Shown here: piece by piece, positions 5,460-51,300 of the stretch
Position numbering within the stretch: position 1 is the first letter of the stretch
Layout: each line of letters opens with the position of its first letter
Assembly (NCBI GenBank): GCA_051819805.1
Contig: JBNJHD010000002.1
Span: 63,754-127,753, forward strand
Length of the DNA: 64,000 nt
DNA from: Nanobdellota archaeon
GTDB lineage: Archaea; Nanobdellota; Nanobdellia; Woesearchaeales; SKGA01
Direction of reading: 5' to 3'
Made by a program: the position numbers and the translations under genes
Notes under the pieces: model-generated
Database searches by the model: none
Seen by the model: only the letters and a program-made list of their open reading frames with translations
Told to the model about the DNA's origin: nothing

Positions 5460-5485
5460 ATTGTCACGACACTATTTCTATGTAA

Positions 5486-30927: not shown

Positions 30928-33900
30928 ATGCATGTCACTAAAACAATATTTCTGTTATCACTCATACTGTTAGTTCTCACACTCCCTCTCTCTTCAGCAG
31001 AATTAGATTTTGACGATATCACTTTTGTAGAGACAAACAAGTCCCGACCAGTAATCAAAGCTTCATACAATCTTCAAGACGCACCAATCACTATCAAGGA
31101 TTATTCTCTAGTCAACAATCATGGTGAGAAAGTACCTATAACCTACTCTCATAATGATGATAGGAACAAGTTCAACTTCTCACTCGATACTCAAGGTTCA
31201 TTATTCGGTAAATATGTTCTTCAAATAGTCGCTAGTGATCAGGATGATAACCTGAACGTTGATTTTTTTGGAATAGATGTCAAGCCAACACCTATGAAGA
31301 TATGGGTCAAAGAACCCAAAAATGATGATATTGAAATTCCTGAACAACAACACATTGCAGTCAATGATCATATTCCATTCAACCTCACGCTCCAATCAGA
31401 AACTTCTGCCTTGTGTCGTATCGTGAAAAACACGGGTTTTCTAGAACAAAAAACGACAGATCAACTCTACAATCTCGGAAAACGATTCAATGATGGCAAT
31501 AACACGTTTACGAAAACCCACAAGATATCTGTTCTCACTCAAAACCAAGAGAGTTCTCAAACACATCTTAATGTAGGATCCTTTGACTATGATGATTACG
31601 AAGAGGAAAACCATTATTTGGTCATCTGTAAAGAATTCAAGATAGGAGCGCAAGAACCTGATTACAAGAGACAACTATTCTACATCGGTTATGATCTCAC
31701 TGATCCTGAGTTCACTGTAAATATGACTCCACAAGTTATTTTTGATGAGTCCAGCCTCGAGACAGAAGCTCTTATAGACTCAAATGATGATAGTCTCATC
31801 TGCTCGTATGATTTCATCAAGAATACACAACCGCAATACAAGCCAGAAAGTAGAAGACTTTCATTCAACACGAATTCAATAGAAGACTATAGTCCGAATA
31901 TCACGTCAACATTTGACTTTTCTGATAAGGGAACTTACGAGTATGAGACGGACTATCCATACACTATCAACTTCACTTGTACAAACCCTGCAATGAGAAT
32001 TTCTTCAGAACTAGCATCATTCAAGATAAGGCTCAAACTGTCATTTGATATTCTCTATGAAGATTCAGGATATTATTCAACATCAAGTCCTGAGCTTCAT
32101 TTCAGAACTAGGAAAGCAGCTTCTTGTCGTTATCAATTCGACTCCGAAGACTATGAGAATACTGATGGGGATGAACATAACCATACAGTGAAATTGAGCA
32201 ATCTGGAAGAAGATGAGTACTCGATAAAACTCAGATGCACATCTTTAGGCGGTGAAGTGAAAGAAGACGTTTTTGACTTCACGATCGACACGACAGCACC
32301 ATCAACACCTGTTGCGCTATCCAGTGATGATAATTGCAATAATCGATGGACAATCTCACTAGCTGAACCTTCTGAAACAGTCTATTATAATATTTCGCTC
32401 TATAACAGCACAAAAGCAACAGAAGGAAACCTCTTACACCAGACACTCACTTCATTCACGAAAGGAATGTTCATGTTCGAAGCACCGGATACTATCGATG
32501 TACTTCCTAATGCCACCTATATTTGGAAAATAACAGCTATTGACCGTGCAGGGTTAACATCAAGCGAGCTTTCGCATTCGACAATAGGAAGACGTCCTGA
32601 TGCTATTGTCTGTGATACTGACTATCCGACTGCGACATTGCAGAAAAAGCCAGTAGGTGAAAACTCATTCAATATCACTATTTCATGTTCTGACAAGCAT
32701 AGTGGCTGTACAGATATGTACGGTTATTCAGAACTGTCTCCCGGTCAAAATTGTTCAGTAGCAAGCTACCAGAATAATAACTATAACGACACACTCACTA
32801 TTCCTTCAGAAACACTATTATGTTATCAAGTAAGGGATGAGGCAGGTCACACGACCAATAAGAGTGAATTTTTATCAACAGATATAGGGATAGAATTAGT
32901 ATCACCTTCCTCAGGTATTGCTTTTGAAAAACCTTTCCAACTCGCTATAAGCACGAAACGAGAAGCAATATGCCACCACGGACCAGTCCGAGATGATCAT
33001 CCACGAGCTCTAGATGAATGGTATGTTTCTCTGGAAAACTTCACTTCTCAAAATAGCCTCGACCATTATGATTCTATAGCAGCAACCGATTATGAAGAAT
33101 TAGATGAAACTGAAGATGAGATTGAAACTGACTGGATTGTCATTTGTCAAGAAGAAGAATTGACCTATCATCAGAAACAATTCTCTCTAGGATATGATTT
33201 GAGTCCTCCAAAAATAACAATCACAGCTACACCAAACCCTATTACAAGCGCTTCAAAACAAACAACAACACTTGAAGTGACTGTTGATGATCAGGCAATA
33301 TGCACATTCCTTGACAGAGAGGGCGTTCCGAGAGGGTTTTCAGGATATGATCCTGACGATATTGATAATTACAAGCAATCATTCTCAACAGTGATCGACT
33401 ACTGGGGATTCACAGAGACTATAACACAATCTGTAAAGTGCCGGAATCTCGCTCAAAAATATTCACAAGAGACATATGATATCAACATAGAATCAGATAA
33501 TGATCTAGGAATCAATATTACAACCCCTGATTATACCAATAACAACAGAGTAGAACTAGTCGCCACCACTACTGACGATGCAACTTGCTCCTATCAGACT
33601 TCCCGAGCAGGACCACAGAGAGAATTCCAGATTACAGGAGGAACAGAACATACTAAATATATAACTCTTGAAGAAGGAAGCAATACAGTAGGTGTGTACT
33701 GTGAAGATGCGCAAGGAGGCTCAGAAAGCATCGTGTTCAAAGATGTCACGGTTGATACGATTCCACCGGTTGTTGAGATACTTTCAGCAGAAAACACCTG
33801 CTCACTAGAGCAGATTTCAGGAATGATATTGACCAACGGAACAGGATCAGCAATAGAAACATACACCTACTCCATCAATAATGGTTCAGCAACCATAGTG

Positions 33901-35683: not shown

Positions 35684-36205
35684 ATGAAATCACGGTCTGG
35701 ACAAATACAACAAGTATTCATCTACCTCGTAGCGATATTCATCATAGGAGCAATAGCTCTGATAGGAGCAAAATCGCTTTTCGGTATCATGGACCAGAAA
35801 GAACAAGTCGATTATCTCACATTCAAAGAGAATATCAAGAATGAAGTCGAAGATAATAATATTTATGGCACTATCAACGAACGCCGTTTCTCGGTTCCAG
35901 GATCGATGAAAAAGATCTGCTTTGTCGATACCGAAACTTTTTTTGAAGGTCTGGGCGCTGAACTTAAAAGAAACAGCTTTAATGCAGATACAGGTAATGA
36001 TGAGATTGACTTCATCATCCAGGATAGTGTTAGAGATGGTGTTAAAGCGAATATATTTCTTTCTGACGGTCAGACGGTTGTTCCTATCGGCTACTCAAAT
36101 AAAGTTCAAACTGATAAAGACATAACATGCATCAATAATACGAACGGATATTTCAACATAGTATTCAAAGGTCAAGGTCGTAAAACACTCATCCTTCCAA
36201 AATGA
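35684..36205 (+). CDS. class III signal peptide (archaeal pilin-like) protein
   Basis: MKSRSG|QIQQVFIYLVAIFIIGAIALIGA: a basic N-region, G/Q junction, then a hydrophobic helix. Confidence 0.55.
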   Translation: MKSRSGQIQQVFIYLVAIFIIGAIALIGAKSLFGIMDQKEQVDYLTFKENIKNEVEDNNIYGTINERRFSVPGSMKKICFVDTETFFEGLGAELKRNSFNADTGNDEIDFIIQDSVRDGVKANIFLSDGQTVVPIGYSNKVQTDKDITCINNTNGYFNIVFKGQGRKTLILPK

Positions 36206-36215
36206 ATACACTAAG

Positions 36216-37328
36216 ATGATTTCGATGAAACAACATCTGCTTGACGGACAAAAAGCTCAAATCCAACTACAATTCAATTGGATTTTTGTCATTATCATAG
36301 GCGCTGTTCTTCTAGGGTTCTTTTTCTCGCTTACTAGTACACAAACTACTGTTTCAGAACAAAGGATAACTGCAGCGACAGCTCGTCAGCTGGATACGAT
36401 AATAACATCCACTGCACAGAAATCAGGTACGTTCAAAAAATTCACCAATGTTCCCGAACGAGAGTTGACATTTTATTGTAATAGTAGAACAGGTCTGTAT
36501 CATTATGAAGTTGATGGTATTCGTGTGGGAACGACAAAACATGATGTTTTATTTACACCACATCAATTCACACCACTAGGGATATACACATGGACTCTTG
36601 ACTGGAGCATCCCATACAAGATGACGACATTCACTTACTTGACTCATGAAGATCATATGTTCATATTCTATGACGACAATCCTTCAGGATCAGCTGATGA
36701 TTTTGACCAGCTCTATGAACCCTTCCCAAAAAATATGACTCATGTTGTCTATAATAAGAGTACAATTGCTGATTTTTCACAGGATAGGCTCAATTATAAT
36801 GACTATACGTATGTGTTTTTCAACAATCAAGATATACCTGAAGAACTCAAAAAAGGTATTCAAGGAGATAATGCTCTTGTCATCACGATAACACCTCAAA
36901 AAGCAGATGTTTTCTCCTACGGCAATGTAACTTTCATGAGTGGAGATGACTATTCAAGTAGTAGTGCTGGCGAGAACACACCATATTTCGGTAGAGCATC
37001 ACTGTATGGAGCACTCTTTTCAGGTTCAAAGCAATTATTCGAATGTAACATGGATAAAGCATACTCGTACATGCATATAGTGACACTCATGCAACTAGAT
37101 AGAGTCAATAGAGTTATTCCTTATGTAAATCCTACCTGCAATAGAGTATTAGGAGGAATCGATGATGGAATTCCACGAACAAGACAGCATCTAGGAAATA
37201 TTTCAGATATTCTCGCTGATGGTATCCGAACTCAAGAAGATGTCAAAACATTATATGATAAAACTCTTCTGGTTGAAGAGAGTAATTATAAACTGGCGAT
37301 GCAAGGGAACTGCCCTCTCATCTATTGA
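36216..37328 (+). CDS. class III signal peptide (pilin-like) protein, 370 aa
   Basis: ...DGQKA|QIQLQFNWIFVIIIGAVLLGFFF, sharing the K-A-Q-I-Q motif with its neighbours. Confidence 0.5.
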   Translation: MISMKQHLLDGQKAQIQLQFNWIFVIIIGAVLLGFFFSLTSTQTTVSEQRITAATARQLDTIITSTAQKSGTFKKFTNVPERELTFYCNSRTGLYHYEVDGIRVGTTKHDVLFTPHQFTPLGIYTWTLDWSIPYKMTTFTYLTHEDHMFIFYDDNPSGSADDFDQLYEPFPKNMTHVVYNKSTIADFSQDRLNYNDYTYVFFNNQDIPEELKKGIQGDNALVITITPQKADVFSYGNVTFMSGDDYSSSSAGENTPYFGRASLYGALFSGSKQLFECNMDKAYSYMHIVTLMQLDRVNRVIPYVNPTCNRVLGGIDDGIPRTRQHLGNISDILADGIRTQEDVKTLYDKTLLVEESNYKLAMQGNCPLIY

Positions 37329-37347
37329 TTGTTCATAAAACACGAAA

Positions 37348-37851
37348 ATGGTCCGTTTCACAAAAGCGCAAATTCAAGTCAGCGAGTCGATTTTCATAGT
37401 CATATTCATCCTTATCATCATCATTTTCGGAATTGTCTTTTACTCAGGAGCGCAAGAGGAAGAGACAAGAGAGAAACGAGCACGATTCGCTGAACTCGAG
37501 TCAATACAAGTGGCTCAGATAGCTTCATCAATTCCAGAGATTCAATGCTCGCTGACTAATGTCCAGAAACCATCTTGTTTTGAAATAGAGAAGATGGATT
37601 CTTTTATCAACATCACCGAAAACAAACGATCACTGACAAGAGAGTATTTTTTCTCGAAGTTAGGGAATACAAGACTTGTAGTGCGAGAAGTATATCCTGA
37701 AGAGAATGAATGGGTGCTCTATAATAACACGCTAGCAGACGATGTTACGCAATCAGGATTACCTGTATTGATTCCAGTCTCACTATATAAGGCAACCTCA
37801 GGAGAATACCATTATGGGGTCCTTTATATCACTAACTTCCAGAAGAAATAA
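37348..37851 (+). CDS. class III signal peptide (pilin-like) protein
   Basis: MVRFTKA|QIQVSESIFIVIFILIIIIFGIVFY. Confidence 0.5.
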   Translation: MVRFTKAQIQVSESIFIVIFILIIIIFGIVFYSGAQEEETREKRARFAELESIQVAQIASSIPEIQCSLTNVQKPSCFEIEKMDSFINITENKRSLTREYFFSKLGNTRLVVREVYPEENEWVLYNNTLADDVTQSGLPVLIPVSLYKATSGEYHYGVLYITNFQKK

Positions 37852-37866
37852 CGATGGAGTAATCAT

Positions 37867-38373
37867 ATGATACCAAGAAAAGCACAGCAAGAGATCATAG
37901 GACTTGTCATTATTGTTCTTATAGTTTCCATGGCAATGCTCATCTACCTTTCAAGCAAAGCTGAAGAAGCTGAAGAGAACCAAGGAGTAAATATCCACAA
38001 GGAATACGCGTATAACGAGCTTGCCATGAGCTTTCTTGATACTATTGTCGATACATCAGTGTGTAATGTGGATATAGATAAACTTGTCAGAGATTGCGGG
38101 TCAAGACAAGAGATTGTCTGTAGTGATGGCAAAACATCTTGTGAGAAGCTCAACGAGACAATAATAGATATAAAAAATAACACGTTGGACGTGTGGGGGA
38201 TGGCATATGGTCTTATCATCAATTATCCTGACACTAGTCCTGCGCCTGATTTTGAATATATACGTGATGATTGCACGAATGAAACAACTGGTCGAAGCGC
38301 TCCTGGTTGGATTCCAGTATCTCTTCACCCACAAGGAACAGCAATGATCGAACTTGGCATCTGTGAATCATAA
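37867..38373 (+). CDS. class III signal peptide (pilin-like) protein
   Basis: MIPRKA|QQEIIGLVIIVLIVSMAMLIYL. Confidence 0.5.
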   Translation: MIPRKAQQEIIGLVIIVLIVSMAMLIYLSSKAEEAEENQGVNIHKEYAYNELAMSFLDTIVDTSVCNVDIDKLVRDCGSRQEIVCSDGKTSCEKLNETIIDIKNNTLDVWGMAYGLIINYPDTSPAPDFEYIRDDCTNETTGRSAPGWIPVSLHPQGTAMIELGICES

Positions 38374-38483
38374 GCATTTATTTATAAATGAATGAAAAGT
38401 TTTAAATACTATTGTTGTGGAAATTTATATACTGTTATTGTAATATAGTCAACTTCGTGTTGATTGTGTGAGGTGTTTTTTAG

Positions 38484-38768
38484 ATGATACGAATGAACAG
38501 GAAAGGTTCCGAACTTTCTATGAATGTGATAATTATAGCAGCAATAGCTCTGCTTGTCCTTGTTATCCTAGCGGTCATGCTACTCCAGAAAGGAGGAGAT
38601 ATACAGGAAGGAACGAGTTGTACAGGTCTAGGTGGAGAATGCTGCTCTAGCTGCGGAAACGCATGTGTAGTTGGTGGACAGAAATATTCCGTGCCACATC
38701 CTACTGGCGAATGTCCTTCTGGTCAGCAATGCTGCTTGAAATTAGGTGATGGAGACACAAACCGATAA
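38484..38768 (+). CDS. small (94 aa) Cys-rich pilin-like protein; candidate major pilin
   Basis: Canonical archaeal prepilin N-terminus MIRMNRKG|SELSMNVIIIAAIALLVLVILAVMLL. A short C-terminal domain with 8 Cys. It has its own TATA-like elements (TTTATTTATAAAT at 38377, AAATTTATATAC at 38422) in the only sizeable intergenic gap of the operon. Confidence 0.55.
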   Translation: MIRMNRKGSELSMNVIIIAAIALLVLVILAVMLLQKGGDIQEGTSCTGLGGECCSSCGNACVVGGQKYSVPHPTGECPSGQQCCLKLGDGDTNR

Positions 38769-41340
38769 GGTTCTCCACTTTTTTTCTTTCTTTCGAGGTG
38801 TGAAATTGGCAGGGCGATTACCAGATTCGAAACGAGCACTCAGCTCAATGGGAACAATAGGGAGTATAGTGATAGTACTCATCATCATCGCGCTTCTGCT
38901 ATTCACGCTTTCAGATGTTTTTGATAAGGCAGAGAAAGGAACGGACTGCGAAGCTATTGGTGGTGTATGGTCTGAAGATTGCAATAAAGATTTTCTTATG
39001 CAAGCAGTAGCTTTCGGCGAGAAAGACGATAAGATATGCTGCTTGAAAAACATAGGGCTTTCTGAGAGTGAAGAAGAGCAGTTCGAGAAATGGTATGAAC
39101 AACAAGCTCAAAGTAGCGGATCAGCACAGTCCGGAAGCCAGCAAGCACGACCTCTCACGTCAGACCAATTCAGTGAGACTCAAGAAGACATCTATATGAT
39201 GTTCAATAATGAGGGCTGGCAAGGGAGTATGACTCTTTCAGAAGCTTCAAACCCTGATAATCACATAACGATAGATCCGGATGACAAGAATACTTTTGCA
39301 GCAGTCAATAACGACCAAGATATCGAACGATGCACTATGGGAATATACCCTGCAGAACCATTTATCGGAGAAGAATTCCGGCGAGATGGTAATACTCCAG
39401 TCTCAGGATTCCAAGTCCAACACCAACCATGCAATATACGAACAGGCATGCAATTCATCGGTATTCTCACAAAAGAAGGTTATTACAAGTGGGATGTGGA
39501 GTTATTCGATGAGAAAGGAGAACGGACAGGTTCCGCTACACGGATCATCCATGTCAAGGAAGGGATATCCTCTCCTTCAGGAGAAGGTATCAAGCAAAAG
39601 ATACTACCTGAGATACGGATCGTTGCCGAAAACAATTTTCGTAAATGCTTCGTTTCAGCACGCGTCATGAACCAAAGCCTTGAAACAGGAAAATATTTCG
39701 GAACAACAACTCCTTCAATCATAAAAGGATATTTCCTAACTGATAAAGAGATAAAGCAAGCAGCAGAGGAAGGGAAAAATATCTGTCCACGCGATCGATC
39801 AACATACAATGAGCCTGTTGACTTCGCAAACGGATGGGATGATATTATTGTCGATTTCAACGAACGCTCTGATTTACACACTGCTTGTTTCTACTTCAAA
39901 GAGTCGGAAACCAGAACCACAACAGGTGCTGATGAACTAGTAACGCTCAATCAAGATAGTTGCGATACGATTGAAGTGATTGATTACAAGCTATTTGAAG
40001 AGATATTCTATGAATGCTCCTACGATTGCGAGATGTATAAGAATCAACAAGTTTCTTGTAATGATAGGGAGTCACGAAACGACAGATGCAGACTATCTCT
40101 AGACTGCGAATGGGAGCAAGGTTTGTTCAAGAAAAACACATGCACGAACTGTCATGAGGATTTCAGTTTTTGCAAGGATTATGATAATGAGGAAGCGTGC
40201 ACATCAAACCAATGTATCATAGATCACAGCTGCTATTGGGAATCAGGTTTTCCGAAAGGAGAATGTAAGGACTGTGATGAGACTCCATCATGTAACGATT
40301 ATAACAGCAGTAAAGCTTGCGAGTCAAACCCTTGTGGTGTTGCAGGTGGAGAGGAAGGAATCTGTTCATGGGAAGATGGTGAATGTAAACTGGACTTGTC
40401 AGCTAGTGGTGGAGACAGCATGAAAACCTGCGATGAGATGAATCGGGGAGAATGTGAAGGAGCACAAGGCTGTCTCTGGGATGCAGCGTTTTTTGGCGGA
40501 GAATGCCAAGATTGTGCCGAGAGAGGAATTGATGATTGTGATTCCTACCCTGACAAAAATGCTTGTAAGCAAGATTATTGCAACATCGAATGCCAATGGG
40601 AAGGAAATGGGTTGTTCAGCTCTGGAGAATGTAATCCTGATGGTTTTTGCGAATCGGATGATGATTGCAACGAAGGCGAAATTTGTCATCAAGGAAAAAA
40701 CCGATGCAAGAAACCTAATGAAGAGATTGATACTGATCAGTTCAATGATCAAGATCCTGATGAAGATGTAGCTACAGAGAATTGTGTTGAGCACGGATGT
40801 GATTTTTCAACTGAACGAAAATGTCTTAGTGAAGGAGGAAAAGACTGTAAGGGTGTTCTAGGCTGTTACTGGATTGCAAATGTAGGTGGTCTTAGTGGAA
40901 GCGAATATTGTCAATCCTGTTCTTCGATCACTTCATGCAGTGATTACAAATACATGTATCCGTGTGACACTAACGAATGCTCTAATGTCAATGATAATTG
41001 TTTCTGGAATCCAGATGAGAATACTGCCTCGGGCAATTATTGTCAATCATGTAATGATATTATGATGTGTAATGATTATATTTCCGAATCAGCCTGTAAC
41101 AGGGATGCTTGTTCAATAGAATATGATTGCATGTGGAATCCTGACTCTCCAGAAAACATTTACGGTGATGGTTGTGTCAATTGCGCTAGGATGACTTGTC
41201 ACGACTATACTACTCAATCACTATGTGAGGAGAATTCATGCGGACTGAATGGCGACCTTGGTTGTGGATGGTCTCAGGATGGTTGTGAACAAGTAATCAG
41301 TGATAGTATTCCTCCCGACTCCGATAGTGCGAATGTCTGA
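38746..41340 (+). CDS. 864-aa pilin-like/surface protein with a C-terminal array of Cys-rich modules
   Basis: N-terminal KRALSSMGTIGSIVIVLIIIALLLF (the start could instead be ATG 38848). The N-terminal module GTDCEAIGG...KICCLK is paralogous to the preceding 94-aa protein. Residues about 450-860 hold more than 8 tandem C-x2-C...C-x-DY...AC-x-N-C...W-x...C modules. Confidence 0.5.
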   Translation: MMETQTDKVLHFFSFFRGVKLAGRLPDSKRALSSMGTIGSIVIVLIIIALLLFTLSDVFDKAEKGTDCEAIGGVWSEDCNKDFLMQAVAFGEKDDKICCLKNIGLSESEEEQFEKWYEQQAQSSGSAQSGSQQARPLTSDQFSETQEDIYMMFNNEGWQGSMTLSEASNPDNHITIDPDDKNTFAAVNNDQDIERCTMGIYPAEPFIGEEFRRDGNTPVSGFQVQHQPCNIRTGMQFIGILTKEGYYKWDVELFDEKGERTGSATRIIHVKEGISSPSGEGIKQKILPEIRIVAENNFRKCFVSARVMNQSLETGKYFGTTTPSIIKGYFLTDKEIKQAAEEGKNICPRDRSTYNEPVDFANGWDDIIVDFNERSDLHTACFYFKESETRTTTGADELVTLNQDSCDTIEVIDYKLFEEIFYECSYDCEMYKNQQVSCNDRESRNDRCRLSLDCEWEQGLFKKNTCTNCHEDFSFCKDYDNEEACTSNQCIIDHSCYWESGFPKGECKDCDETPSCNDYNSSKACESNPCGVAGGEEGICSWEDGECKLDLSASGGDSMKTCDEMNRGECEGAQGCLWDAAFFGGECQDCAERGIDDCDSYPDKNACKQDYCNIECQWEGNGLFSSGECNPDGFCESDDDCNEGEICHQGKNRCKKPNEEIDTDQFNDQDPDEDVATENCVEHGCDFSTERKCLSEGGKDCKGVLGCYWIANVGGLSGSEYCQSCSSITSCSDYKYMYPCDTNECSNVNDNCFWNPDENTASGNYCQSCNDIMMCNDYISESACNRDACSIEYDCMWNPDSPENIYGDGCVNCARMTCHDYTTQSLCEENSCGLNGDLGCGWSQDGCEQVISDSIPPDSDSANV

Positions 41341-41490
41341 AACCAAACCAGTCTTATCGAAACTAGTGATGTATAATGAAATGTATTCGAGAACTATACA
41401 AAAAAGCAATTATGAACGAGACTGTTATTATCATATTCTCAATACTATTATTCATAGCAGTAGCTGCAGCAATCATGAAGGTGAGATCGA

Positions 41491-42174
41491 ATGTTTTCGG
41501 GTAATAAGAAAGGATTCGATACTTGGCAAATCATTACTATAACTGTAGCAATCATCACCTTGATAGCTATTTCAAGTATATGGAATCAAGCTCATGGTTC
41601 AGTCAAAGAATCCTTTGATGGAGTCGCATGCAGAGCCACAATCCACGCTCACGATATCACAGACACAGTATTCACTCCAGGTATTGAAAAAAGCTGCGCG
41701 ACAAGAGAACGACGAATATCACTCAAGGATAAGACGAAAGACGACTTGATCAAAGAACTGGAGAAACTCATGGCAAACTCTTGGTTGATGGTCAATGAAG
41801 GTCGATCAGATGACCTTTGGGAAGAGGATGCTCCTTTGAAAAAAGCAGGCTACTCATGCATGGCAACAGATCACATCTTTTTCGAGGATGTCGATAAGAG
41901 AGATTTCGAAGAAGAAATGATCACCCCTGAAGAGATAAGAGCACATATGAAAGAATCATATAAGAATGACGATTACACGTATCACATGTATATACAAGGG
42001 CATGGTGGTGTAGGAACGTACAAGATAACAGACAATGTGACTTTCAATAATGAATATATAATTTCAATAGCAAGTCCTCACTTCAATATATTCACACGAG
42101 AAGACGAGTTTGCAACAGGACTCATCTTGAGCTCGCTTGAAACAGGAAAACAGATAGGGTGTAAGCTAGTATGA
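41491..42174 (+). CDS. class III signal peptide (pilin-like) protein
   Basis: MFSGNKKG|FDTWQIITITVAIITLIAISSIW. Confidence 0.5.
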   Translation: MFSGNKKGFDTWQIITITVAIITLIAISSIWNQAHGSVKESFDGVACRATIHAHDITDTVFTPGIEKSCATRERRISLKDKTKDDLIKELEKLMANSWLMVNEGRSDDLWEEDAPLKKAGYSCMATDHIFFEDVDKRDFEEEMITPEEIRAHMKESYKNDDYTYHMYIQGHGGVGTYKITDNVTFNNEYIISIASPHFNIFTREDEFATGLILSSLETGKQIGCKLV

Positions 42175-42377
42175 TAGACATACTCATTCAACAGATTATC
42201 GACACTGTCCGTCTCGGAAAGAAAGGGATGGAATTTCAAATGATACTGTATCTCATATTAGCTCTCGTAGGTTTTGTCGTCCTGCTTTCAATAATCCTGC
42301 ACGTCACTCAGGATAAAGGAGGAGAAGCACTGAGTGCTACTGATTCACTCTTGAAATCAATCACTGGAAAAGACTAG
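42171..42377 (+). CDS. small (68 aa) pilin-like protein
   Basis: ATGA start/stop overlap with the upstream gene; LGKKG|MEFQMILYLILALVGFVVLLSII. Confidence 0.45.
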   Translation: MIDILIQQIIDTVRLGKKGMEFQMILYLILALVGFVVLLSIILHVTQDKGGEALSATDSLLKSITGKD

Positions 42378-42401
42378 ATGACATAAAGGTGCCAATACAA
42401 T

Positions 42402-44144
42402 ATGGATACGAGAATTATGGTAGGGGCGATGATTTTTATCATAGTTGCACTACTCAGTATTTCATTCATGACCTCAACAGGAGAGGATTCAAAAGGTTTG
42501 ATAGATAAATCGCTCAACACATCAAAATTATTCCCTGAAGATCTGAGAAGTGATGATTATTACCGTGATGATATTTCAGTACCTGTCTCTGTTGTCGAAT
42601 ATACATATGCCTTTGCAAAAGCAGCTTTTGATGACGAGTTCTATTATCAGAAAGGAGTTGCTGAAGGAGATGGAAAAATACTATTACTCCCTAATCCTCC
42701 AGACCTCTCGAAAAACCGTTATGATAAACGATACGTCCTGCGTATAATCCAGGATAATGATGATATAGAGATAGAATTATACGATACGGAAACAACACAA
42801 GAGCACCGATTACAAGACTTGTACCCTGACAGCGATTTCCGATTTCTCAAAGATAAGAAATTAGCTATCGTGTCGGAATTCTGTGGTTATGAAAGCACTA
42901 CATTCAAGGATATGATGGAAGCAGATATTACTTCTCAACCTCTTTCTCTTGATTCGACCAATTATATTGACAATAATGATGAGGATATGATTGAATTCTT
43001 CATTTCAGATGATAATACGTTAGTTCAAGATTATAGTGAAATTAATTTAGAATCAAAACATGAAGATTTCTCTAGAGTTGTTGACTCTGAAGAAATTTTT
43101 TACGGTGGTGATGAACACGGTCTGTTAACCTATATTAAAAAGACTGATGATGGTGAAGGAACTGTCGTGCTAACGCCAACTGCACACAGGAGTACTAGTT
43201 TGTCTTTTTATTCAGAAATTGATGATTTTAAATCTACCATTGATAAGAGGTTGTTTGGAAATTGTATGGATCAATCGTTCGTTTCTAATGCAATTTCTGA
43301 AGGATATTTTAAAACAGAAGCTATAGAAAAAATAGAAGATGTCGCAGAACAACATTTTGAAGAATATTTTTCAAACATCCTCACTAAAAACTATGGTAAT
43401 AACAATCTCTATCCGAACGGAACGCTCGTATATCAACAGGAATCATTTCCAAATCGTTACAAATCATTATTATTATCGCAAACTGATTCTGAAATGGAAT
43501 ATACAAAACAAATTTTATTCACTTTTGATAGCAGGCTAAAGAATAATGATTATGTTTTCAATGTTTATATGGTCTCCCCTTACAAGAAAGTACGTGAGGG
43601 TACTGCCAAATCATTGATTAAAATAGCTAGCTTTAAAATGAGTGAACCAGTTCAACCTATTTTATTACCTCCGGGCTATTCATCATCACCCTATAAAACA
43701 GTCAATCTTCTTTCTTTCATTTCTTCTCCTGATTTTATGGTATACGATGATTCGAATGATGATCTTTCTTCTCTAGTAACACCTGGTGAAGTTTATTCAT
43801 CCAATGAGGAGAAGATGTCTGCTTTTTTTGATAGTGTTTCAGAATCATATGTTATTGATAAGGAAATTGTAGTTTTACCTATTACTTATTCGAAACCCTT
43901 ATACTTGTATAACACTAATATCATATTCTTTGACGATTTTGATTATGATGATAATTTCATATGCTATAAGAATATGCAAACACCATCTCTTTATATCGGT
44001 GATAGGGACAAATTGAAAAGAAAAGACTACTGTGACTTATCAGGTTCCGAAGAAGAATCATTCCACTCAACAATTTATTATTCTGCATTCGATCAAATCA
44101 AAAAAAATCCTGATCTGGTCAGATGCGAGGTGATACAAACATGA
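42402..44144 (+). CDS. 580-aa secreted protein with an N-terminal signal anchor
   Basis: MDTRIMVGAMIFIIVALLSISFMTS, then an acidic, D/E/Y-rich ectodomain. Confidence 0.45.
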   Translation: MDTRIMVGAMIFIIVALLSISFMTSTGEDSKGLIDKSLNTSKLFPEDLRSDDYYRDDISVPVSVVEYTYAFAKAAFDDEFYYQKGVAEGDGKILLLPNPPDLSKNRYDKRYVLRIIQDNDDIEIELYDTETTQEHRLQDLYPDSDFRFLKDKKLAIVSEFCGYESTTFKDMMEADITSQPLSLDSTNYIDNNDEDMIEFFISDDNTLVQDYSEINLESKHEDFSRVVDSEEIFYGGDEHGLLTYIKKTDDGEGTVVLTPTAHRSTSLSFYSEIDDFKSTIDKRLFGNCMDQSFVSNAISEGYFKTEAIEKIEDVAEQHFEEYFSNILTKNYGNNNLYPNGTLVYQQESFPNRYKSLLLSQTDSEMEYTKQILFTFDSRLKNNDYVFNVYMVSPYKKVREGTAKSLIKIASFKMSEPVQPILLPPGYSSSPYKTVNLLSFISSPDFMVYDDSNDDLSSLVTPGEVYSSNEEKMSAFFDSVSESYVIDKEIVVLPITYSKPLYLYNTNIIFFDDFDYDDNFICYKNMQTPSLYIGDRDKLKRKDYCDLSGSEEESFHSTIYYSAFDQIKKNPDLVRCEVIQT

Positions 44145-44638
44145 TATTCAATAAAAAGAAAGCATCAAGCTCAACATATATCATACTAGGGGTTGTTATG
44201 ATGATTATACTAATCCTGCTGTCTTTGGCTTTAACTACAGATGTTTTCGGAAAAACTTCTGATTCAACAGATTCAATTTTCAAAAAGACCAATGAAGCTA
44301 TCGATGAAGGGAATCTGGACTCGTTCACAAATAATAACAAGTGCTCTGATGAAGACAAGAACTATTATTCTCTTGACAATAAACTCACAGGAGTCTTTGG
44401 TAATCAGGCAGGCAAGGTAGAAAAAATACATCGGGAAGACCTCGAAGCAATAAAAAAGTATCTCGATCAAGAAATTGGTGATAGTGCTCCACTAGAATTC
44501 ACTGATAGGGATAATCTTAATGACCTGCTGGTTGATGATGTCTCAAAAGAAGCTTTTTGCCCGACAGTAGATGAGGATAGCGAGTGTGATTTCAAACAGT
44601 TCGAAGAAACATTCCAACCTGAAGAGATATGTGGCTGA
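44141..44638 (+). CDS. class III signal peptide (pilin-like) protein
   Basis: The ORF-track frame starts at 44123. ATG 44141 gives an ATGA overlap with the upstream stop: MIFNKKKA|SSSTYIILGVVMMIILILLSLAL. Confidence 0.45.
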   Translation: MIFNKKKASSSTYIILGVVMMIILILLSLALTTDVFGKTSDSTDSIFKKTNEAIDEGNLDSFTNNNKCSDEDKNYYSLDNKLTGVFGNQAGKVEKIHREDLEAIKKYLDQEIGDSAPLEFTDRDNLNDLLVDDVSKEAFCPTVDEDSECDFKQFEETFQPEEICG

Positions 44639-44658
44639 AATAAGTATTTATACTGTGA

Positions 44659-46296
44659 TTGATGATGGATAAAGAGGTGACAAAGAAAGGGGCAACACTA
44701 TCACTAGTTGCTATCATGAGCATTATCATGTCGGTAATCATAGGCTATGCTGTCTTTTCAGGAATAAGCAATTATTACGGTGATCAGAAAACAGATCATA
44801 GTAACCGTCTTGACACGTTCAACGAAATCATTTCTGAAGTACATTACAACAACAATCTCCAGAAAGATAAATATACCATTTATGTCGAACCTTACGAGAT
44901 GTACATGTTCTTTTCAACAGGGAATGAACCAATACGATTATCAGCGACCTTTGACGGAAAAACAAAGAACATACTTCTAGAACGACCCAGCTACGCAGAT
45001 GAGTGCAATTCCAGCGCTTGCATCTGCTATTGCAAGCAAGGACCATACTGGGATCAAACTACTGATGAAGATGAGAATATCATAAGAAGGCCTCTTTCTG
45101 GCTTGACATTCACACAATCATCGATGAGTAGAGGATATCTTTGTCATAGCATGACTTGCCAATCAGTAAATCCTGAAGATACTGTGTTTTTCAATTCCAG
45201 AGGGTATGATAAAGAATATGCAGATGCTCTTACAACGTCTTATTTACGACTACACGATCCTGACCTCTCAGAAGAAGAACAAAGCTGGGATACGCTAGGA
45301 GAGAAGATGAAAACATCAACAGGGATGCCCTTTGACGTCATTATACTCAGCTCACGTTTTGGAAAAAAAGTCATTTCTTCTGCTTTCAACACTGGTGTTC
45401 TTGAATCCTTAGGAAACGAGCTGGAAGGTTTCTGGTATGCGATGGTCTTGTTGTTTTCAAGTGGGGATGTGAAGGAAGAGGCAGCAAATAAGGTATATCT
45501 CAATGAATTGGAAAAAAACATCGGCCCTGATGATATTATTGAAGTGCTTGCTACTAATTTCAACTGGGATGGCGGTATAGCTATCGGCGGAACTGGAATG
45601 CCAAAGACAAAAAAAGATCTGAAAGAAGGAAATCTTCGTGGAGTGGTCATCCCGCTTACGTTCCAGAAATCTAATGAGATTGAAAATGGGATAGCGATAT
45701 GTCCGGCTGACAATTGCCTATTTGAGAAGGCACAGCAACATTTCGCTGAGAAGGCAAAACAATACAAGGCTTCAGAAACTATCGATCGTAGAATACATGA
45801 TTATAATCAATTCATTGACCGGTCTTTTCTGAATTGTATGAAAGACTATCCTTCTGAAAAATGCATCTCCGAGTTCCAGATAGAAACTATTGACTTTATT
45901 CAAGATCTCCATGAACACTCCATTCTCTATGACAGTGACAAGTTCGCTATCGAAATATATTTCACGAAGATAGAAGAACCAGATAGTGAACAATTGACGA
46001 ATATGACTGTGAAACGAACCATCGGTTCTCAAACAGAACCACTTATAGAAAAAATCCTTCCAATACCATTTCCGTATATACATCCAATTTCAGACTCTCC
46101 TGGAGGTGTTTCTACAATCGCAAACTCTCCACTTATCATTACTGATGTAAACGAGGAAACTCTCTATTTCACACTTGAAGGTCATGCTGATAATGCTTTT
46201 GATATGGAACTCAAGGAATTGGAAGATAGTGAATATACGATTACGTTCACTGAAATTCCCAACAAACATAGTATTGCTATACAGACCATGCCCTGA
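44659..46296 (+). CDS. 545-aa class III signal peptide (pilin-like) protein
   Basis: MMMDKEVTKKG|ATLSLVAIMSIIMSVIIGYAVF, a canonical KG|A prepilin junction. Confidence 0.5.
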   Translation: MMMDKEVTKKGATLSLVAIMSIIMSVIIGYAVFSGISNYYGDQKTDHSNRLDTFNEIISEVHYNNNLQKDKYTIYVEPYEMYMFFSTGNEPIRLSATFDGKTKNILLERPSYADECNSSACICYCKQGPYWDQTTDEDENIIRRPLSGLTFTQSSMSRGYLCHSMTCQSVNPEDTVFFNSRGYDKEYADALTTSYLRLHDPDLSEEEQSWDTLGEKMKTSTGMPFDVIILSSRFGKKVISSAFNTGVLESLGNELEGFWYAMVLLFSSGDVKEEAANKVYLNELEKNIGPDDIIEVLATNFNWDGGIAIGGTGMPKTKKDLKEGNLRGVVIPLTFQKSNEIENGIAICPADNCLFEKAQQHFAEKAKQYKASETIDRRIHDYNQFIDRSFLNCMKDYPSEKCISEFQIETIDFIQDLHEHSILYDSDKFAIEIYFTKIEEPDSEQLTNMTVKRTIGSQTEPLIEKILPIPFPYIHPISDSPGGVSTIANSPLIITDVNEETLYFTLEGHADNAFDMELKELEDSEYTITFTEIPNKHSIAIQTMP

Positions 46297-46329
46297 ATGC
46301 TCATGCGATAAAAATGACGGTAGTTCAAG

Positions 46330-47232
46330 ATGAGAAAAAAACTTTCGAAGAACAAGAAAGCTTCCTGGCCAGTTCTCATAATTATGGATCTCATCGTAGC
46401 AGTCATGATCATACTTATCCTCGTTGGAATCTATGAGATATTCACTGATGAATCTCAAGTTGATAACATCGCAATGGCAAGGGATGTAGCAACACTTGTT
46501 GATGCTGTTCATGCAACAGAACGGGACTTGATATATAGTTATCCTGAAAGTTTCTATGAAAAAGACTTATTCTTCAACCGGACGAAGATACTCGTTACAA
46601 AAGATGTCTCTGGAATGTCAGGAAAACTTGCTTCACTACGATTTCTCTCATCCTATCCTGTTCACTTGAGTGATTTCATAACGATCAATGCTGTACGTAC
46701 AATAGACGGTGCAAAAATAATTCTTGAAAAAAAAGATCGAGAACTATCGATAATATCAGAACGATCATTTCACCGTGATGAAGAGACCATACCAACTTCA
46801 TCGCTAACACGAGAACAAATCACTCTTGACATTCTCACTGAAAAAAACACGCACTCAGTACAACAAGATTTGGCCAATGCCATTGACGCACAACTAGAAA
46901 TTGAACAGTTCAACGTATCATCAAATAGACCTACTGCAAGTATCATCATGGCTTCAAAGAGTGAAGGACGAATAACGATATATTATGAAGAAACACATAA
47001 GAAATCGATGGAACCGATAGCAGAGATACTCATATCATATCTTGAAAAATCAGATGATCTTGCAGTGACAAGCCAACCACTCCAATATACTCACGATACT
47101 CATTTGGCATCTATCAAGATAGCGATACCTGAAACAGTAGATTATCAAGATTATTTCATGAATCAAAACAACAAAGATGCATTTGTAGAACGAATTATCT
47201 ATTCACTCAAACAATATTATCCGACACAATGA
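46330..47232 (+). CDS. class III signal peptide (pilin-like) protein
   Basis: MRKKLSKNKKA|SWPVLIIMDLIVAVMIILILVGIY. Confidence 0.45.
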   Translation: MRKKLSKNKKASWPVLIIMDLIVAVMIILILVGIYEIFTDESQVDNIAMARDVATLVDAVHATERDLIYSYPESFYEKDLFFNRTKILVTKDVSGMSGKLASLRFLSSYPVHLSDFITINAVRTIDGAKIILEKKDRELSIISERSFHRDEETIPTSSLTREQITLDILTEKNTHSVQQDLANAIDAQLEIEQFNVSSNRPTASIIMASKSEGRITIYYEETHKKSMEPIAEILISYLEKSDDLAVTSQPLQYTHDTHLASIKIAIPETVDYQDYFMNQNNKDAFVERIIYSLKQYYPTQ

Positions 47233-47717
47233 AACAACTATTCCAAAGCAGGAAAGGGTCTGATGGCGATGCGTATGTCTCACAAGAGAAACCATTCAAA
47301 TTCATCGCATTCATCGTTATCATAACAGGAGTGCTTATCGTATTTCTTGCTTACGGGAGCAACTTCATGGATGCAGTAGCACATGTGGATGAAAATCTCG
47401 AAGCGGAAATAATGATAGAGAGAATGCAAAACGTCTGCTTTGCTGCAAGAGATCCATACACACTCCAACCCCAAGAGAATATTCTGGAGTATAGGAAGAT
47501 AAACCGCAAAACTCTTCAACGATGTTTTTCAAGTGATAATATTCCAACAATGATCATATCAATAGATCTGCTTGATGAACATACGAAACAAGAAATCAAC
47601 TTCAACCCAAGCTATATGAAAATAGGATCAGGATCGACAGAACGAGATTATGTCAGATACACCGTAATCAAGATTGATGGGGAATCATATCCTGGAGAAC
47701 TGCGAGTGAAAATATGA
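47229..47717 (+). CDS. pilin-like/signal-anchored protein
   Basis: ATGA overlap with the upstream gene; SRKG|SDGDAYVSQEKPFKFIAFIVIITGVLIVFLAY. Confidence 0.4.
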   Translation: MKQLFQSRKGSDGDAYVSQEKPFKFIAFIVIITGVLIVFLAYGSNFMDAVAHVDENLEAEIMIERMQNVCFAARDPYTLQPQENILEYRKINRKTLQRCFSSDNIPTMIISIDLLDEHTKQEINFNPSYMKIGSGSTERDYVRYTVIKIDGESYPGELRVKI

Positions 47718-48352
47718 GAGGAAAAAAGGCTCAACACGAGATGGATCTCACTTCCCTAGCTGCAGGTCTTGTCTTCATTATAATAGCATTCATCATATTT
47801 TCGCAAGTTGCTGATAATATCAGAATGAGTAGTGAAGAAAGAACTCTCCAAGAGGAAATGGAGCTAGGAGTTTCCAGGCACTTAAGAACGTTGCTTGAAT
47901 CCCCTGCAGATTATCAGGGATCGAAAGTGAAAGTTTCAGAACTCATACAGGATTATTACTATTATTATCTTCAGCAAGAAGAAGATGTTTGCGAGATACA
48001 TAGTTGTAGTGATCACATGATTCTCATAAAAAAATCAATACAAGAAAGTGTTGATCATTCATCAAGACTACTTGAAGGAAACAAGGATATCAATACATAT
48101 CTGATGAAAGCAGACGATCCTGAGATAACGCTAGGGGAAGTCACGTATGATGTAGATCCCCACTCTCGAAGTTGCAGCAGAAATGACGATGAGTCTTATT
48201 ATTGTGTTGGAGGAACTGTCTTCTCCTCTGACGCAGTGTTTTTACCATTACGAACTCACGAGTCACTTTCAGGATATGATGAGTATGTTATTGTGTTCGT
48301 CTTCGGACTTTATGACGTTGAAGCACAAGCCAGTTACTCGAAAATCGTTTGA
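47714..48352 (+). CDS. class III signal peptide (pilin-like) protein
   Basis: ATGA overlap; MRGKKA|QHEMDLTSLAAGLVFIIIAFIIF shares the K-A-Q motif. Confidence 0.45.
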   Translation: MRGKKAQHEMDLTSLAAGLVFIIIAFIIFSQVADNIRMSSEERTLQEEMELGVSRHLRTLLESPADYQGSKVKVSELIQDYYYYYLQQEEDVCEIHSCSDHMILIKKSIQESVDHSSRLLEGNKDINTYLMKADDPEITLGEVTYDVDPHSRSCSRNDDESYYCVGGTVFSSDAVFLPLRTHESLSGYDEYVIVFVFGLYDVEAQASYSKIV

Positions 48353-48363
48353 ACACTAAAAAA

Positions 48364-51300
48364 ATGAAATCGCACATGAAAAGCTCAAAAAAAGGAGTTT
48401 CACTCCTACTATCAAGTATATTCGTTTTACTGATGGTCATAGGAATCATATTAGCAGTCTATAATCCTGACGAGCAGATAGATATAGGGTCTAAACAATA
48501 TCAGGTACTGATTTCAAACGAGAAAGCCTCAGCGATTGATTTATTCATCAAGCAAGCTTTCAAGTTATCTTCTGACTATTCAGTCGATATATTTTTTCAC
48601 AACAATGGTGTATTCAACGAAGAGACTGAAGACGGAGAACACACTGAACACCAATGCGGAAAATACCTCGCACCTCTATTTTTCAAGTCCTCGGAGGATC
48701 CTGATGCATGTTTTCCTGATTTCAGAGATAATTTTAAAGCTTATCTCGGTACAGACTTCAATAAGAAACTTCTCACATATCCTGAAATAGATCTTTATTT
48801 CAATCCAGAAATATTCATCGGAGAACAAAATGACTTCATAACATGCGATGGTTCTTCATCACTAGCACAAACTTATATTGAGCGGTCAAACAAGGAAGCA
48901 TGGAATACAGGTGGAAAAACTTATCTCGAAACCGCTTTTGAGGTGGCAGCTGACACAGGTGCTGACCCTGCTTTACTTCTCGCCCATGCATCAATGGAAA
49001 GTGCTATGGGTGAAGATAATACGTGCACAAATCAAGGAAAGAGTTCTCTGACAGGCTGCGGTTGGCTTCCAACTTGTTCAAAAGACTGCGGTTGTGAAGA
49101 TACACGCGGTTATTTCGAATCAGACACTAGCCAATTCCAATGCACAGCTCGTGTCGATAAGGCTGCGTTCGCAGGGGAAGGATCGTATGAGAAATGCACA
49201 CCATATAGAGATAACCCTGAACTGCTTTTCAATTGTGTCATGTGTGTTTATCAAGGAAATTATGATACTGTCATTCCAGGAGGTGGAGAAAAATACTTTA
49301 CAAAAGATGATACATGCCGTTATGCAGAAATCGTTTCATCATTATATTGTGGTTGGAATAAGTATCTGTCTCAAGAATACGAGGAAGAAATTCTTAGCGA
49401 TGATAAAGTAAGCTCATTTGTCTCAATGGAAACAGAAGAAGCTATTGAGATACCTATACTGACTCAATCCGAGCTACGATCAGATATCAACCGAAAATCA
49501 TATCCTAACGGTCTGCTCGGAGGGTTCCAGAACGAACGAATAATACCTTGCGGTTCTTCAACGTGCTTAGCAGATATTGCCGAATACTATCATAGTCTTT
49601 ACAGGCAGTATCCGTATGTGTGGGGAGGAGAATCACCATACTCATATCAGGATACAAAACCATTAACTGAAGAACAAGATTCGGTATTCTACAAAGTTTC
49701 AGTGACAAGAAAGCAACCTGAAAAAGTCGCATTCACAGAACCAGGATTCGACTGTTCAGGATGGGTCTGGTGGGTCGCTTCACATTCAAGTGCACAACCA
49801 CTCAGCATACGAAATGATGCGGAAGGCTTTTACAGGATGTTACAGAAATCAACGGATGCACAACCTGTTTGTGATAAAGAAAACGAGAAATCCTGTTCAA
49901 AAGAGACTATTATCAATAACGCACAACCAGGAGATATCTTATTCTACAAAGGACTTCATGATCCTAAAGTAACTCATATCATGATCTATCTCGGTGAAGG
50001 AGTCATCAGTCACTCTCGAGGATCGAAAGGTCTTGTCAAAGAAGATATTCCACCATCATACACTAATAACATACAAGCAGTTTACCATCTCAAAGGATCG
50101 GCATTCAGTGGAACTCACGATTCACTTGACTCCTACTTCAAGAATAGCGATGAAGAGTTATCCGAGTCAAAAGGTTCTTGTGTCTTACCAATTGATTTCA
50201 CGCAAATCAATGAAGAAGCTATAGATTCGACAAGAGTATCTTTTGAAGAACTCCAGGAAACAATCATTAAGAACGATCTTGAACAGACCATTCAGGAAGC
50301 GTCCAAAAAATACCGTATTCCAACAGCATATATCAAGGCGATAATCACGACAGAAGTAGGTGGATCGAAATATCTCGATAAATACTTATCAGGAGAAACA
50401 ACAATAAGCGAGAGCAATATGAGAGGTCCGATGCAATTATCACGTGTGGCTTGCGATACTCTAAATGATGCAGAAGCTGATTCGTGCGACCTCAAAGTTA
50501 TAGAGAAAGGTGATGTGGAAAACGCGATCATGACTTCGACCAGATTCATAGCGCACCTCAGGGACACGACACAATATATTGACAAGAACAATCCGGATTA
50601 TTACATGTTATCGCTAGCTTACAATGCAGGTCCGGGAAGCCTGAAATATATTCTAGAAACTGCAAGCAAGAGAACAGGAATACATCCTGAACAACTACAA
50701 TGGAGAGATATCACTTATAATGACATACAAAACGGGCTCAAAGACACAGGTAAAGATTGGGCTGATGATGAAGACAAATGGAAAGAAGTCCGAGAATATC
50801 CTAATCTTGTCGCTCAATCACTCTCTGAGCAGTGTCTAGGTAATCCTTTGCTACCGAAGACAAGAAGCAGTATCCGATTAGAACCACAAGCTTATGCTAC
50901 TGTCAATATAGATTTCAATCTATTAGAAACGATTGAAGAATTCACAATTTCGCTACAATCATGCAATGATGATCTTGACGTTTGCGTTTCAGAAAAGACT
51001 GATGAGTTCAACCAAGAGTTCTATGATGTTGAAGTTATCGATACAGCTAACGAACTTGACAGGCATTCAACTCCTCAGGATTCAAAAATAATCCGTTCAG
51101 GAGTATATCTTACTGAACTCTCTTCTCAAGATACGAAATCAAGTAATGATGTGTTTGCAATGAATTTCCTTAAACAACTGATTGACTGCTCAACTAATTC
51201 CCAATCAGGATGTGTTTGCATGATAAATTCAAATACTTCAGAATTGCAAGCTGAACAAGTGACATTGAAACTTGCGTGGAACGAACGAAGCTACCAACCA

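Follow-up and report, generated by a model that had tools for sequence, protein, structure and literature searches.

The Epd pilins of Methanococcus maripaludis are the closest known case to the proteins described here: their leaders of 5–13 residues end in G and are followed by Q at position +1 and E at +5 (PMC4371748, PMC3875500). EppA, a dedicated peptidase that needs Q+1, has substrate sites in Methanococcus reading RAQI, KGQV, KGQL and KGQI, whereas FlaK rejects Q+1 and PibD-type peptidases are tolerant at this position (PMC4371748, PMC3875500). The Epd type is classed as 'system 1' of the type IV filaments (TFFs) and is reported from methanogens and some ('a few') DPANN archaea (bioRxiv 10.64898/2026.04.22.720090). 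Modular type IV pilins, for example Streptococcus sanguinis PilB and PilC, consist of an N-terminal pilin module fused to functional modules shown on the filament (see PMC8179133); in the Sulfolobus bindosome (Bas system; see PMC3047682), class III signals are carried by large, non-filament surface sugar-binding proteins that join a pilin-like assembly. Here we analyse a 64-kb stretch of DNA, 'the window' (positions 63,754–127,753 of contig JBNJHD010000002.1, assembly GCA_051819805.1, a Nanobdellota archaeon), in which a single-strand cluster of ~30 kb (window positions 23101–53555) encodes proteins that share an N-terminal motif, [KR][GAS]/Q, where the slash marks the predicted cut. The analysis establishes the motif and how well it is conserved, how the genes group into families and keep their order, a predicted helix-plus-beta architecture and, at the cluster end, hydrolase domains. 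The reading we favour, at a probability of roughly 0.6, is that these N-termini are cleaved prepilin-type (class III) signals on subunits of a TFF-like surface apparatus.

Six genes of the cluster begin with Q+1 sites, and the N-termini quoted for them in the original prediction are all exact in the translations (6/6). They are the gene at 23101..26631 (1176 aa, MRTKG/QATIFVILG), gene A at 35684..36205 (173 aa, MKSRSG/QIQQVFIY), gene B at 36216..37328 (370 aa, or 367 aa from the NCBI start at M4, ..DGQKA/QIQLQFNWIFV), gene C at 37348..37851 (167 aa, MVRFTKA/QIQVSESIF), gene D at 37867..38373 (168 aa, MIPRKA/QQEIIGLVI) and the gene at 47714..48352 (212 aa, MRGKKA/QHEMDLTSLAAGLVFIII, which opens QHEMDL). 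All six have the same layout: a short basic leader ends in G or A, Q stands next, and several polar residues lead into a hydrophobic stretch of ~20 residues that is free of charge. A scan of all open reading frames (ORFs) in the window yielded ~19 class III-like N-termini, all but that of 23101 lying between 35684 and 53555; outside the cluster, matches were few and evidently spurious. Leaders in the window are 5–14 aa long, and in gene A the residue at −2 is S, unlike the K/R of its relatives. Some 12 other class III-like genes of the cluster, which lack Q+1, were overlooked in the original prediction. Q occupies +1 in 6–7 of the ~19 N-termini, against a Q content of 4.1% in the same proteins (binomial P for the excess, 8e-5 to 6e-6), and as a control Q follows internal [KR][GA] dipeptides in only 5/98 cases. 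The codons used for the motif are not the same from gene to gene, so it is neither a DNA repeat nor a product of gene conversion.

The motif is kept in orthologues from ~80 other Woesearchaeota genomes. For this comparison, 80 related loci were pulled from species-representative genomes with a profile of the gene B family, each locus spanning ~20 kb (10 kb either side of the B gene); family presence was counted over 85 sources, and motif and Walker-A screens covered the window and 84 loci. Conservation is strictest in families C and D. In family C, Q-x4-E occurs in 69/72 unique N-termini, with A/S/G at −1 in 69/69 and K/R at −2 in 66/69; E+6 (E13) is invariant and Q+1 (Q8) is present in at least 90%. 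In family D, Q+1, E+3 and G+6 (Q-x-E-x-x-G) were found in 70/70 sequences, preceded by A/G/S at −1 in 70/70 and K/R at −2 in 68/70; at ~25% identity (45–70 sequences), the sole invariant columns are Q7, E9, G12 and four cysteines. An exhaustive hidden Markov model (HMM) search with family D recovered 1601 50%-identity clusters from public metagenomes at E<=1e-3, and among the best 150 of these Q-x-E-x-x-G was present in 142, the other 8 being miscalled starts or fragments. Leaders in the 142 vary from 3 to 26 residues (median 6), with K/R at −2 in 125/142. One metagenomic member of the family had been auto-named 'competence protein ComGC' by JGI/IMG, the other named members being 'hypothetical protein'. 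That Q1 is invariant along with E3/G6 in D, or with E6 in C, suggests that these residues serve the mature N-terminus, for instance by packing helices or neutralising charge; cyclisation of the N-terminal Q may also occur.

Elsewhere in the cluster the motif is looser. Family A, with the consensus [KR][GAS]/Q-x3-Q-[VI]-F-[IV]-Y and no acidic residue, has [KR][GAS]Q in 52/73, Q+1 in 32/56 and Q+5 in 51/56. In family B, [KR][GAS]Q is found in 35/82 and Q is the commonest residue at +1 (~43–47%; Q 35, A 22, G 7), while Q+5 lies within Q-F-N-W-I-F in 62/74, E+3 is present in 44/74 and the WIF is invariant. The protein in the window, 36216..37328, is 100% identical to the 'hypothetical protein' ACQESE_01130, its next relatives being Woesearchaeota proteins from metagenome-assembled genomes. 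Orthologues of 23101 in 27 loci show K-[SAG]/Q-[IV]-T (Q-x-T in 14–17 of 25). Three further families of the cluster, F, H and I (41491, 46330 and 47229), retain [KR][GAS] and rarely have Q+1 (10/56, 2/27 and 4/29, respectively), and at 47714 Q+1 is not a family trait, being present in only ~7/30 positional homologues. G and A are typical at −1, with S used in 10–16 cases. Across the families, conservation changes abruptly where the cut is predicted: the leader varies in length and sequence and retains just its charge and the small residue at −1, and downstream lie the best conserved residues of the whole proteins. This abrupt change is the strongest argument for the prepilin reading, because it is expected of a mature pilin N-terminus and not of a plain membrane anchor.

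The anatomy of the site is that of a class III signal, with a short basic leader directly before the hydrophobic region, a small residue at −1 and an uncharged hydrophobic helix of ~20 residues right after the site. A Sec-type signal was rejected for the class III-like starts, as the small residue precedes the hydrophobic region instead of following it, and this region is longer than such a signal would have. Q at +1 has, in the EppA substrates, a tested precedent as a processing site. Gaps between cluster genes run from −22 to +35 nt, save one of 110 nt before 38484, and since the genes are co-oriented and so tightly packed, a common route of export and assembly is the best reading. The original prediction had argued from a conserved processing site to a common assembly pathway, and that step is favoured by site anatomy, packing and the EppA precedent alike; its corollary, one dedicated signal peptidase, fared badly. 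Q and non-Q residues at +1 are mixed both within the operon and within single families (35 Q beside 22 A and 7 G in B, and Q in 48/70 members of the small family described below), and no peptidase gene was found in either the window or the 80 loci. The coexistence of Q and other +1 residues means that Q+1 is not the sole determinant of recognition.

The small protein E (38484..38768, 94 aa, MNRKG/SELSMNVIIIAAIALLVLVIL) has a Cys-rich C-terminal knot and belongs to a family of 70 unique sequences of 80–125 aa, found in 47 loci in 1–3 tandem copies per locus (for example L022:12112-13133, L037:12259-12824 and L044:4563-5125, where L numbers denote loci). Its N-terminal helix (..S-x-N-[VT]-I-I-[IV]-A-A..) is nearly invariant and the most conserved helix of the cluster. 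Q+1 occurs as Q-[GS]-x-S-x-N in 48/70 members, the copy in the window being a non-Q variant with S at +1, and the Cys-rich part gave weak defensin-like Pfam matches (best E 7.8e-5). The gene is preceded by the sole long intergenic gap of the cluster, which is 75% AT, and probably has its own promoter. Because of its small size, copy number and probable promoter, the E-type protein is the best candidate for a bulk (major) subunit.

Structure predictions (AlphaFold2) for B and D gave in both cases an N-terminal helix of 55–59 residues followed by a beta-rich domain with conserved cysteines. In B (predicted local distance difference test score, pLDDT, 89; predicted template modelling score 0.82) the helix spans residues 13–67 and leads into beta and alpha domains; in D (pLDDT 84) a helix at 4–62 is followed by a helical loop region (helices 70–110) and a four-stranded sheet. 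The predicted models thus have the ~50-residue extended helix and beta-sheet head expected of a pilin fold, and their layout is the general 'lollipop' of pilins.

Several results weigh against cleaved prepilin signals on a filament-like apparatus. In the model of D, helix residues 31–50 have a pLDDT of 60–67 and could be a linker. Foldseek searches against the Protein Data Bank (PDB) gave no pilin and no significant match (best E 0.026 for B, 0.1 for D), and profile searches of PDB sequences that used C, D and E as query families brought up nothing meaningful. In Pfam and NCBIfam, no model of a pilin or a class III signal matched any cluster protein, any N-terminal fragment at E<=10 or any of 68 E-type members; with the Class_IIIsignal (DUF361) and NCBIfam class III models, the sole match was a sub-threshold one of TIGR04205 to 36216 (E=0.19). 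Genes for a prepilin peptidase, secretion ATPase or platform protein were found neither in the 64-kb window nor, at the 80 loci, in the 10 kb to either side of gene B, and one preprint reports type IV pilus components to be missing from DPANN genomes. The machinery screens comprised a T2SSE-type Walker A motif, the GxGD peptidase motif and ORFs with several transmembrane (TM) segments and GxGD, in the window and 84 loci, and Pfam searches of the window genes. The Walker-A screen matched an ABC transporter ATPase (window 57303-58289) and an RFC-like protein (L084), together with two unverified matches, ORFs of 165 aa (L026) and 332 aa (L051), the latter probably an ABC-type ATPase. No PilB/ArlI-type ATPase with a PilC/ArlJ-type platform was linked to the pilin-like genes in the window or the 84 loci, and neither a 9-TM peptidase of EppA type nor a two-platform 'system 1' locus was present in window or loci.

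These absences would suit an account in which the N-termini are uncleaved signal anchors of bitopic (N-in, C-out) proteins that form a surface complex and no filament, with Q, E and G at the cytoplasmic end of the helix serving helix–helix packing or insertase recognition. The missing pilin HMM and fold matches, and the predicted linker in D, which is charged and of low confidence, sit well with such anchors; it is because no peptidase, ATPase or platform gene adjoins the cluster in 80 genomes, and because of the preprint on DPANN, that we regard this account as unlikely rather than negligible. It leaves unexplained, however, why [KR][GAS] is fixed at −2/−1 beside a leader of free length (3–26 residues), why ~19 unrelated proteins share the same arrangement, and why E-type proteins of 80–125 aa with little beyond the helix occur in tandem; moreover, the site, [KR][GA]/Q[IVL], is identical to EppA sites whose cleavage has been established by experiment.

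Near the end of the cluster, a gene for a 1549-aa protein (48349..52998, ..SSKKG/VSLLLSSIF) joins a class III-like N-terminus to NlpC/P60, SLT and CHAP domains. The cluster-end gene of other genomes has a similar class III-like N-terminus with differing modules, namely M23+3D, glucosaminidase, 3D, NlpC/P60, Amidase_2 or SLT (L064:17153-20287, L072:17811-20405, L020:10838-12316, L034:19575-20963, L007:11614-13098, L045:17374-19821 and L061:18179-20287), so that peptidoglycan-hydrolase modules look to have been swapped at a fixed position. Large murein transglycosylase proteins are known in Woesearchaeota and Pacearchaeota, with bacterial hosts as their proposed target (PMC9723730, PMC8204110). 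In the literature searched, no paper linked Woesearchaeota, or their murein transglycosylases, to pilins or pilin-like genes. The domain content and position of these genes suggest an apparatus by which enzymes that degrade cell walls would be brought to bear on a bacterial partner.

The cell-wall hydrolases of Gram-positive conjugative plasmids combine such domains behind an N-terminal helix, as does the 1549-aa protein, and giant proteins with immunoglobulin (Ig) domains lie upstream in the cluster. Both features would suit an apparatus for cell–cell transfer resembling Gram-positive conjugation (type IV secretion), built of small bitopic channel or scaffold proteins, large adhesins and a PrgK/TraG-like murein hydrolase, with the shared N-terminus as a membrane anchor. 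We consider this improbable: neither the window nor the loci contain a VirB4/VirD4-type ATPase, a VirB6-like polytopic protein or a relaxase; the cluster is chromosomal, set among replication genes and syntenic lineage-wide, not mobile; and the [KR][GAS]/Q site is a feature of pilins, not of type IV secretion systems.

The original prediction saw in the shared motif a paralogous family that had expanded in situ; on such an account the members would be recent paralogues multiplied in place, their Q site inherited by common descent and read by one Q-specific peptidase. Beyond the motif itself, profile–profile alignment (hhalign) offers some room for kinship, with between-family matches of 45–95% probability, so that the N-terminal modules may descend from one ancient ancestor; these matches are limited to the first 35–70 residues. 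For the family searches the N-terminal helix was removed from each query, since full-length jackhmmer runs drifted between families via the hydrophobic helix, and the helix-free searches gave no cross-hits between families A–D; nor did BLASTP among window proteins detect similarity among the five genes from 35684 to 47714. A, B, C and D are four separate families, each single-copy per locus and present in 73–85 of the 85 sources, and they stand in the same order, A-B-C-D, in at least 73 genomes in which orthologues are just 22–35% identical. Such fixed order of separate, single-copy families shows that they are not recent local duplicates, and the differing motif codons and the variation of +1 within families and operon also speak against expansion in place, which we accordingly rejected and now hold to be very improbable. 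The cluster genes are better described as old, distinct components retained together; any common origin of A–D would predate the lineage and concern the N-terminal module only. Chance or compositional likeness among unrelated membrane proteins, for which one might cite the shortness of the motif (just three residues) and the loss of Q+1 in positional homologues of 47714, is scarcely credible and was rejected in view of the binomial test and near-invariance in hundreds of orthologues.

On the prepilin reading we infer that a peptidase cleaves the leaders, that a filament assembles and that single subunits have the roles given below; the precursors would insert into the membrane via the ~20-residue hydrophobic helix. 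The basic leader of 4–15 residues would then be cut off after G, A or S by an archaeal prepilin peptidase of the A24 family, with its gene in another part of the genome, so that Q would become residue 1 of the mature protein, and the exposed helices (Q1 with E3, E6 or Q5) would pack together and so join the subunits in a filament or a short pseudopilus. A–D (35684–38373) would act as a minor-pilin-like set, with the E-type protein (38484) the likely bulk subunit. The larger members, among them those at 23101 (1176 aa) and 48349 (the 1549-aa murein hydrolase), may be modular pilin-like proteins displaying adhesin or enzyme modules, whose likely target would be the cell wall of a bacterial partner.

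Gene order is conserved well beyond A–D. Naming genes by letter and protein length, the order G1176, X1390, Y1574, A, B, C, D, (E) ... F227 ... H300, I162, a ~200-aa protein and the murein hydrolase is kept in ~80 Woesearchaeota genomes. All genes in the window cluster lie on the forward strand. G1176 (the gene at 23101), a candidate large modular pilin-like protein or adhesin, has no Pfam family, its TadE/G-like N-terminal match being weak and sub-threshold (E=0.006). X1390 (26724..30896, 1390 aa) has a Sec-type, not class III, signal peptide with CarboxypepD_reg, fn3 and MG3-like Ig domains, and Y1574 (30928..35652, 1574 aa) a Sec-type signal peptide (..PLSSA/E) with a Big_13 Ig-like domain; their positions, just upstream of the pilin-like block and just upstream of gene A, respectively, are kept across loci. 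Pilin-like gene A, without a match in Pfam or NCBIfam, is single-copy in 76 loci, and B is the largest of the pilin-like A–D. Downstream of E, J864 (38800..41340, or 38746-41340 in its longer form; ~846–864 aa) has an N-terminal hydrophobic helix and Cys-rich segments similar to those of E-type proteins. It is followed by a 42-aa ORF with a class III-like start (41376..41504, ..YKKA/IMNETVIIIF), which has a similar counterpart of 43 aa among the genes called in L003; by pilin-like F227 (41491..42174, 227 aa, MFSGNKKG/FDTWQIITITVAII), present in 45 loci and sometimes in two copies; and by a 68-aa ORF (42171..42377) with a class III-like start, ..LGKKG/MEFQMILYLILALVGF (MEFQMILYLIL), kept in close relatives. 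Both small ORFs overlap or abut their neighbours and could easily be missed by gene callers; 43- and 68-aa equivalents are called in close relatives. K580 (42402..44144, 580 aa) has an N-terminal hydrophobic helix with a non-canonical site, MDTRIMVG/AMIFIIVALL. Next come M171 (44123..44638, 171 aa, ..FNKKKA/SSSTYIILGVVMMIIL), L545 (44659..46296, 545 aa, ..VTKKG/ATLSLVAIMSIIM), H300 (46330..47232, 300 aa, ..SKNKKA/SWPVLIIMDLIVAV, 29 loci) and I162 (47229..47717, 162 aa, ..QSRKG/SDGD...FKFIAFIVIITGVL, 30 loci). The last cluster gene, beyond the murein hydrolase (52995..53555, 186 aa, MKS/QAMILVALLLSILL), has a class III-like or Sec signal and no relatives in the related loci.

The cluster is flanked in the window by archaeal housekeeping genes (Cdc6, TrmB, TBP, MCM, the PolD small subunit, RPA and NurA), and the forward strand holds every gene from ~17 to 53.5 kb. 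Scans of the 64-kb window for transfer RNAs and Rfam families were both empty. On the reverse strand, a long ORF cut by the window start (1-1958) may encode the large subunit of DNA polymerase D, to judge from its translation alone, and is followed at 3903-6703, also in reverse, by the PolD small subunit (DNA_pol_E_B and Metallophos domains) and Cdc6. MCM and TBP lie at 9.7–12.5 kb, and an AT-rich stretch (GC 0.27) at 6–8 kb; a replication origin may be located near these genes and this stretch. Just upstream of 23101, between two giant surface-protein genes, is a Memo-like protein (22149-23030; PF01875, E=6.6e-35) whose position is not kept in other loci. The first of these giants, a 1681-aa ORF with a GTG start (17041-22086, N-terminus MRVVAEFG/QYFKVITIFLVLISMMMIASG, start codon uncertain), likewise has G/Q followed by a hydrophobic stretch, but no K/R at −2; it was absent from the original prediction, and had no relatives among the 84 loci and no Pfam match. 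As to taxonomy, the labels of the 80 loci are nearly all Woesearchaeota, Nanoarchaeota or Nanoarchaeia. The full Woesearchaeota-type cluster is also found on contigs labelled 'uncultured Methanosarcinales archaeon', 'Candidatus Aminicenantes bacterium' and 'uncultured Rhodobacter sp.' (L008-L011, L014, L017, L038 and others, some of them third-party annotation bins), and these odd labels probably reflect placeholder or mis-binned taxonomy.

DPANN archaea make up a large part of archaeal diversity, and most lineage-specific proteins of Woesearchaeota are without assigned function. The prepilin reading would give one mechanistic label to ~19 neighbouring hypothetical proteins and at least four large families, and would link the much-discussed giant murein hydrolases found in these archaea with one particular apparatus that is conserved. 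It predicts mature N-termini starting with Q, a peptidase that accepts more than one residue at +1, and, at the site of bacterial contact, wall-degrading heads borne on filaments or short stalks; the variant positions E+3, E+6 and Q+5, in place of E+5, are of interest for pilin helix packing. More tentatively, and as a possibility to which we give clearly less weight, Woesearchaeota, and probably Pacearchaeota, may possess a lineage-wide ~30-kb apparatus of more than 15 unrecognised pilin-like families with Q+1 signals, whose interchangeable murein-hydrolase heads (SLT, 3D, NlpC/P60, CHAP, M23, amidase, glucosaminidase), displayed by a filament or pseudopilus, would serve to bind bacterial hosts and break through their peptidoglycan. 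If true, this would be an archaeal host-penetration device based on a type IV filament, and would account for part of the function-unknown 'Module 98' families.

Compared with the Epd pilins (DUF361, Pfam Class_IIIsignal), the proteins of the window are alike in their short basic leader ending in G or A, Q+1 and hydrophobic helix, and in what would be a set of several minor pilins with a very small major pilin, with many pilin-like genes per genome. Q+1 is found here in six window genes, being invariant in C and D, in the majority in A, commonest in B and present in 48/70 E-type members. The E+5 of the Epd motif (QxSxE) is replaced by E at +3 (D, most of B) or +6 (C), by Q+5 (A, B) or, in E-type proteins, by S+4/N+6. 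They also differ in that S can stand at −1, not every gene of the operon has Q+1, no Pfam or NCBIfam model matches, no genes for EppA, the ATPase or a double platform adjoin, the host is a DPANN archaeon, and members reach 1549 aa with murein-hydrolase modules. The signal is therefore of an already known kind, set apart by its acidic position, by S at −1 and by the unrecognised protein families that carry it.

Bacteria, too, have sets of minor pilins or pseudopilins: GspH-I-J-K in type II secretion systems, FimU-PilV-W-X in type IVa pili and ComGD-E-F-G in competence systems. A–D resemble these in being four different proteins, one of them larger, in fixed order near a small candidate major subunit and alike only in the N-terminal helix; they differ in their archaeal-type Q+1 site without the F+1/E+5 consensus, in the absence of an outer membrane or secretin context, and in lacking a sequence or fold match to solved pseudopilin structures. 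In Sulfolobus the Bas genes (ATPase, platform) are clustered with their substrates; no ATPase or platform gene is so clustered in the window or loci, and both the proteins and the lineage are different. With modular type IV pilins, the proteins at 23101 and 48349 and the positional homologues of the latter appear to share a pilin-like N-terminus joined to further modules, although here murein hydrolases serve as the modules and vary from genome to genome, in proteins of up to ~1500 aa. The proteins of 'Module 98' (fam00969) in Woesearchaeota and Pacearchaeota are alike in being giant extracellular murein hydrolases of the same lineages with a proposed action on bacterial hosts, and are treated alone, with no mention of pilins, in the passages of PMC9723730 and PMC8204110 that were searched; here, by contrast, the hydrolase carries a class III-like N-terminus, stands at the end of a conserved pilin-like cluster and has catalytic modules that are swapped between genomes.

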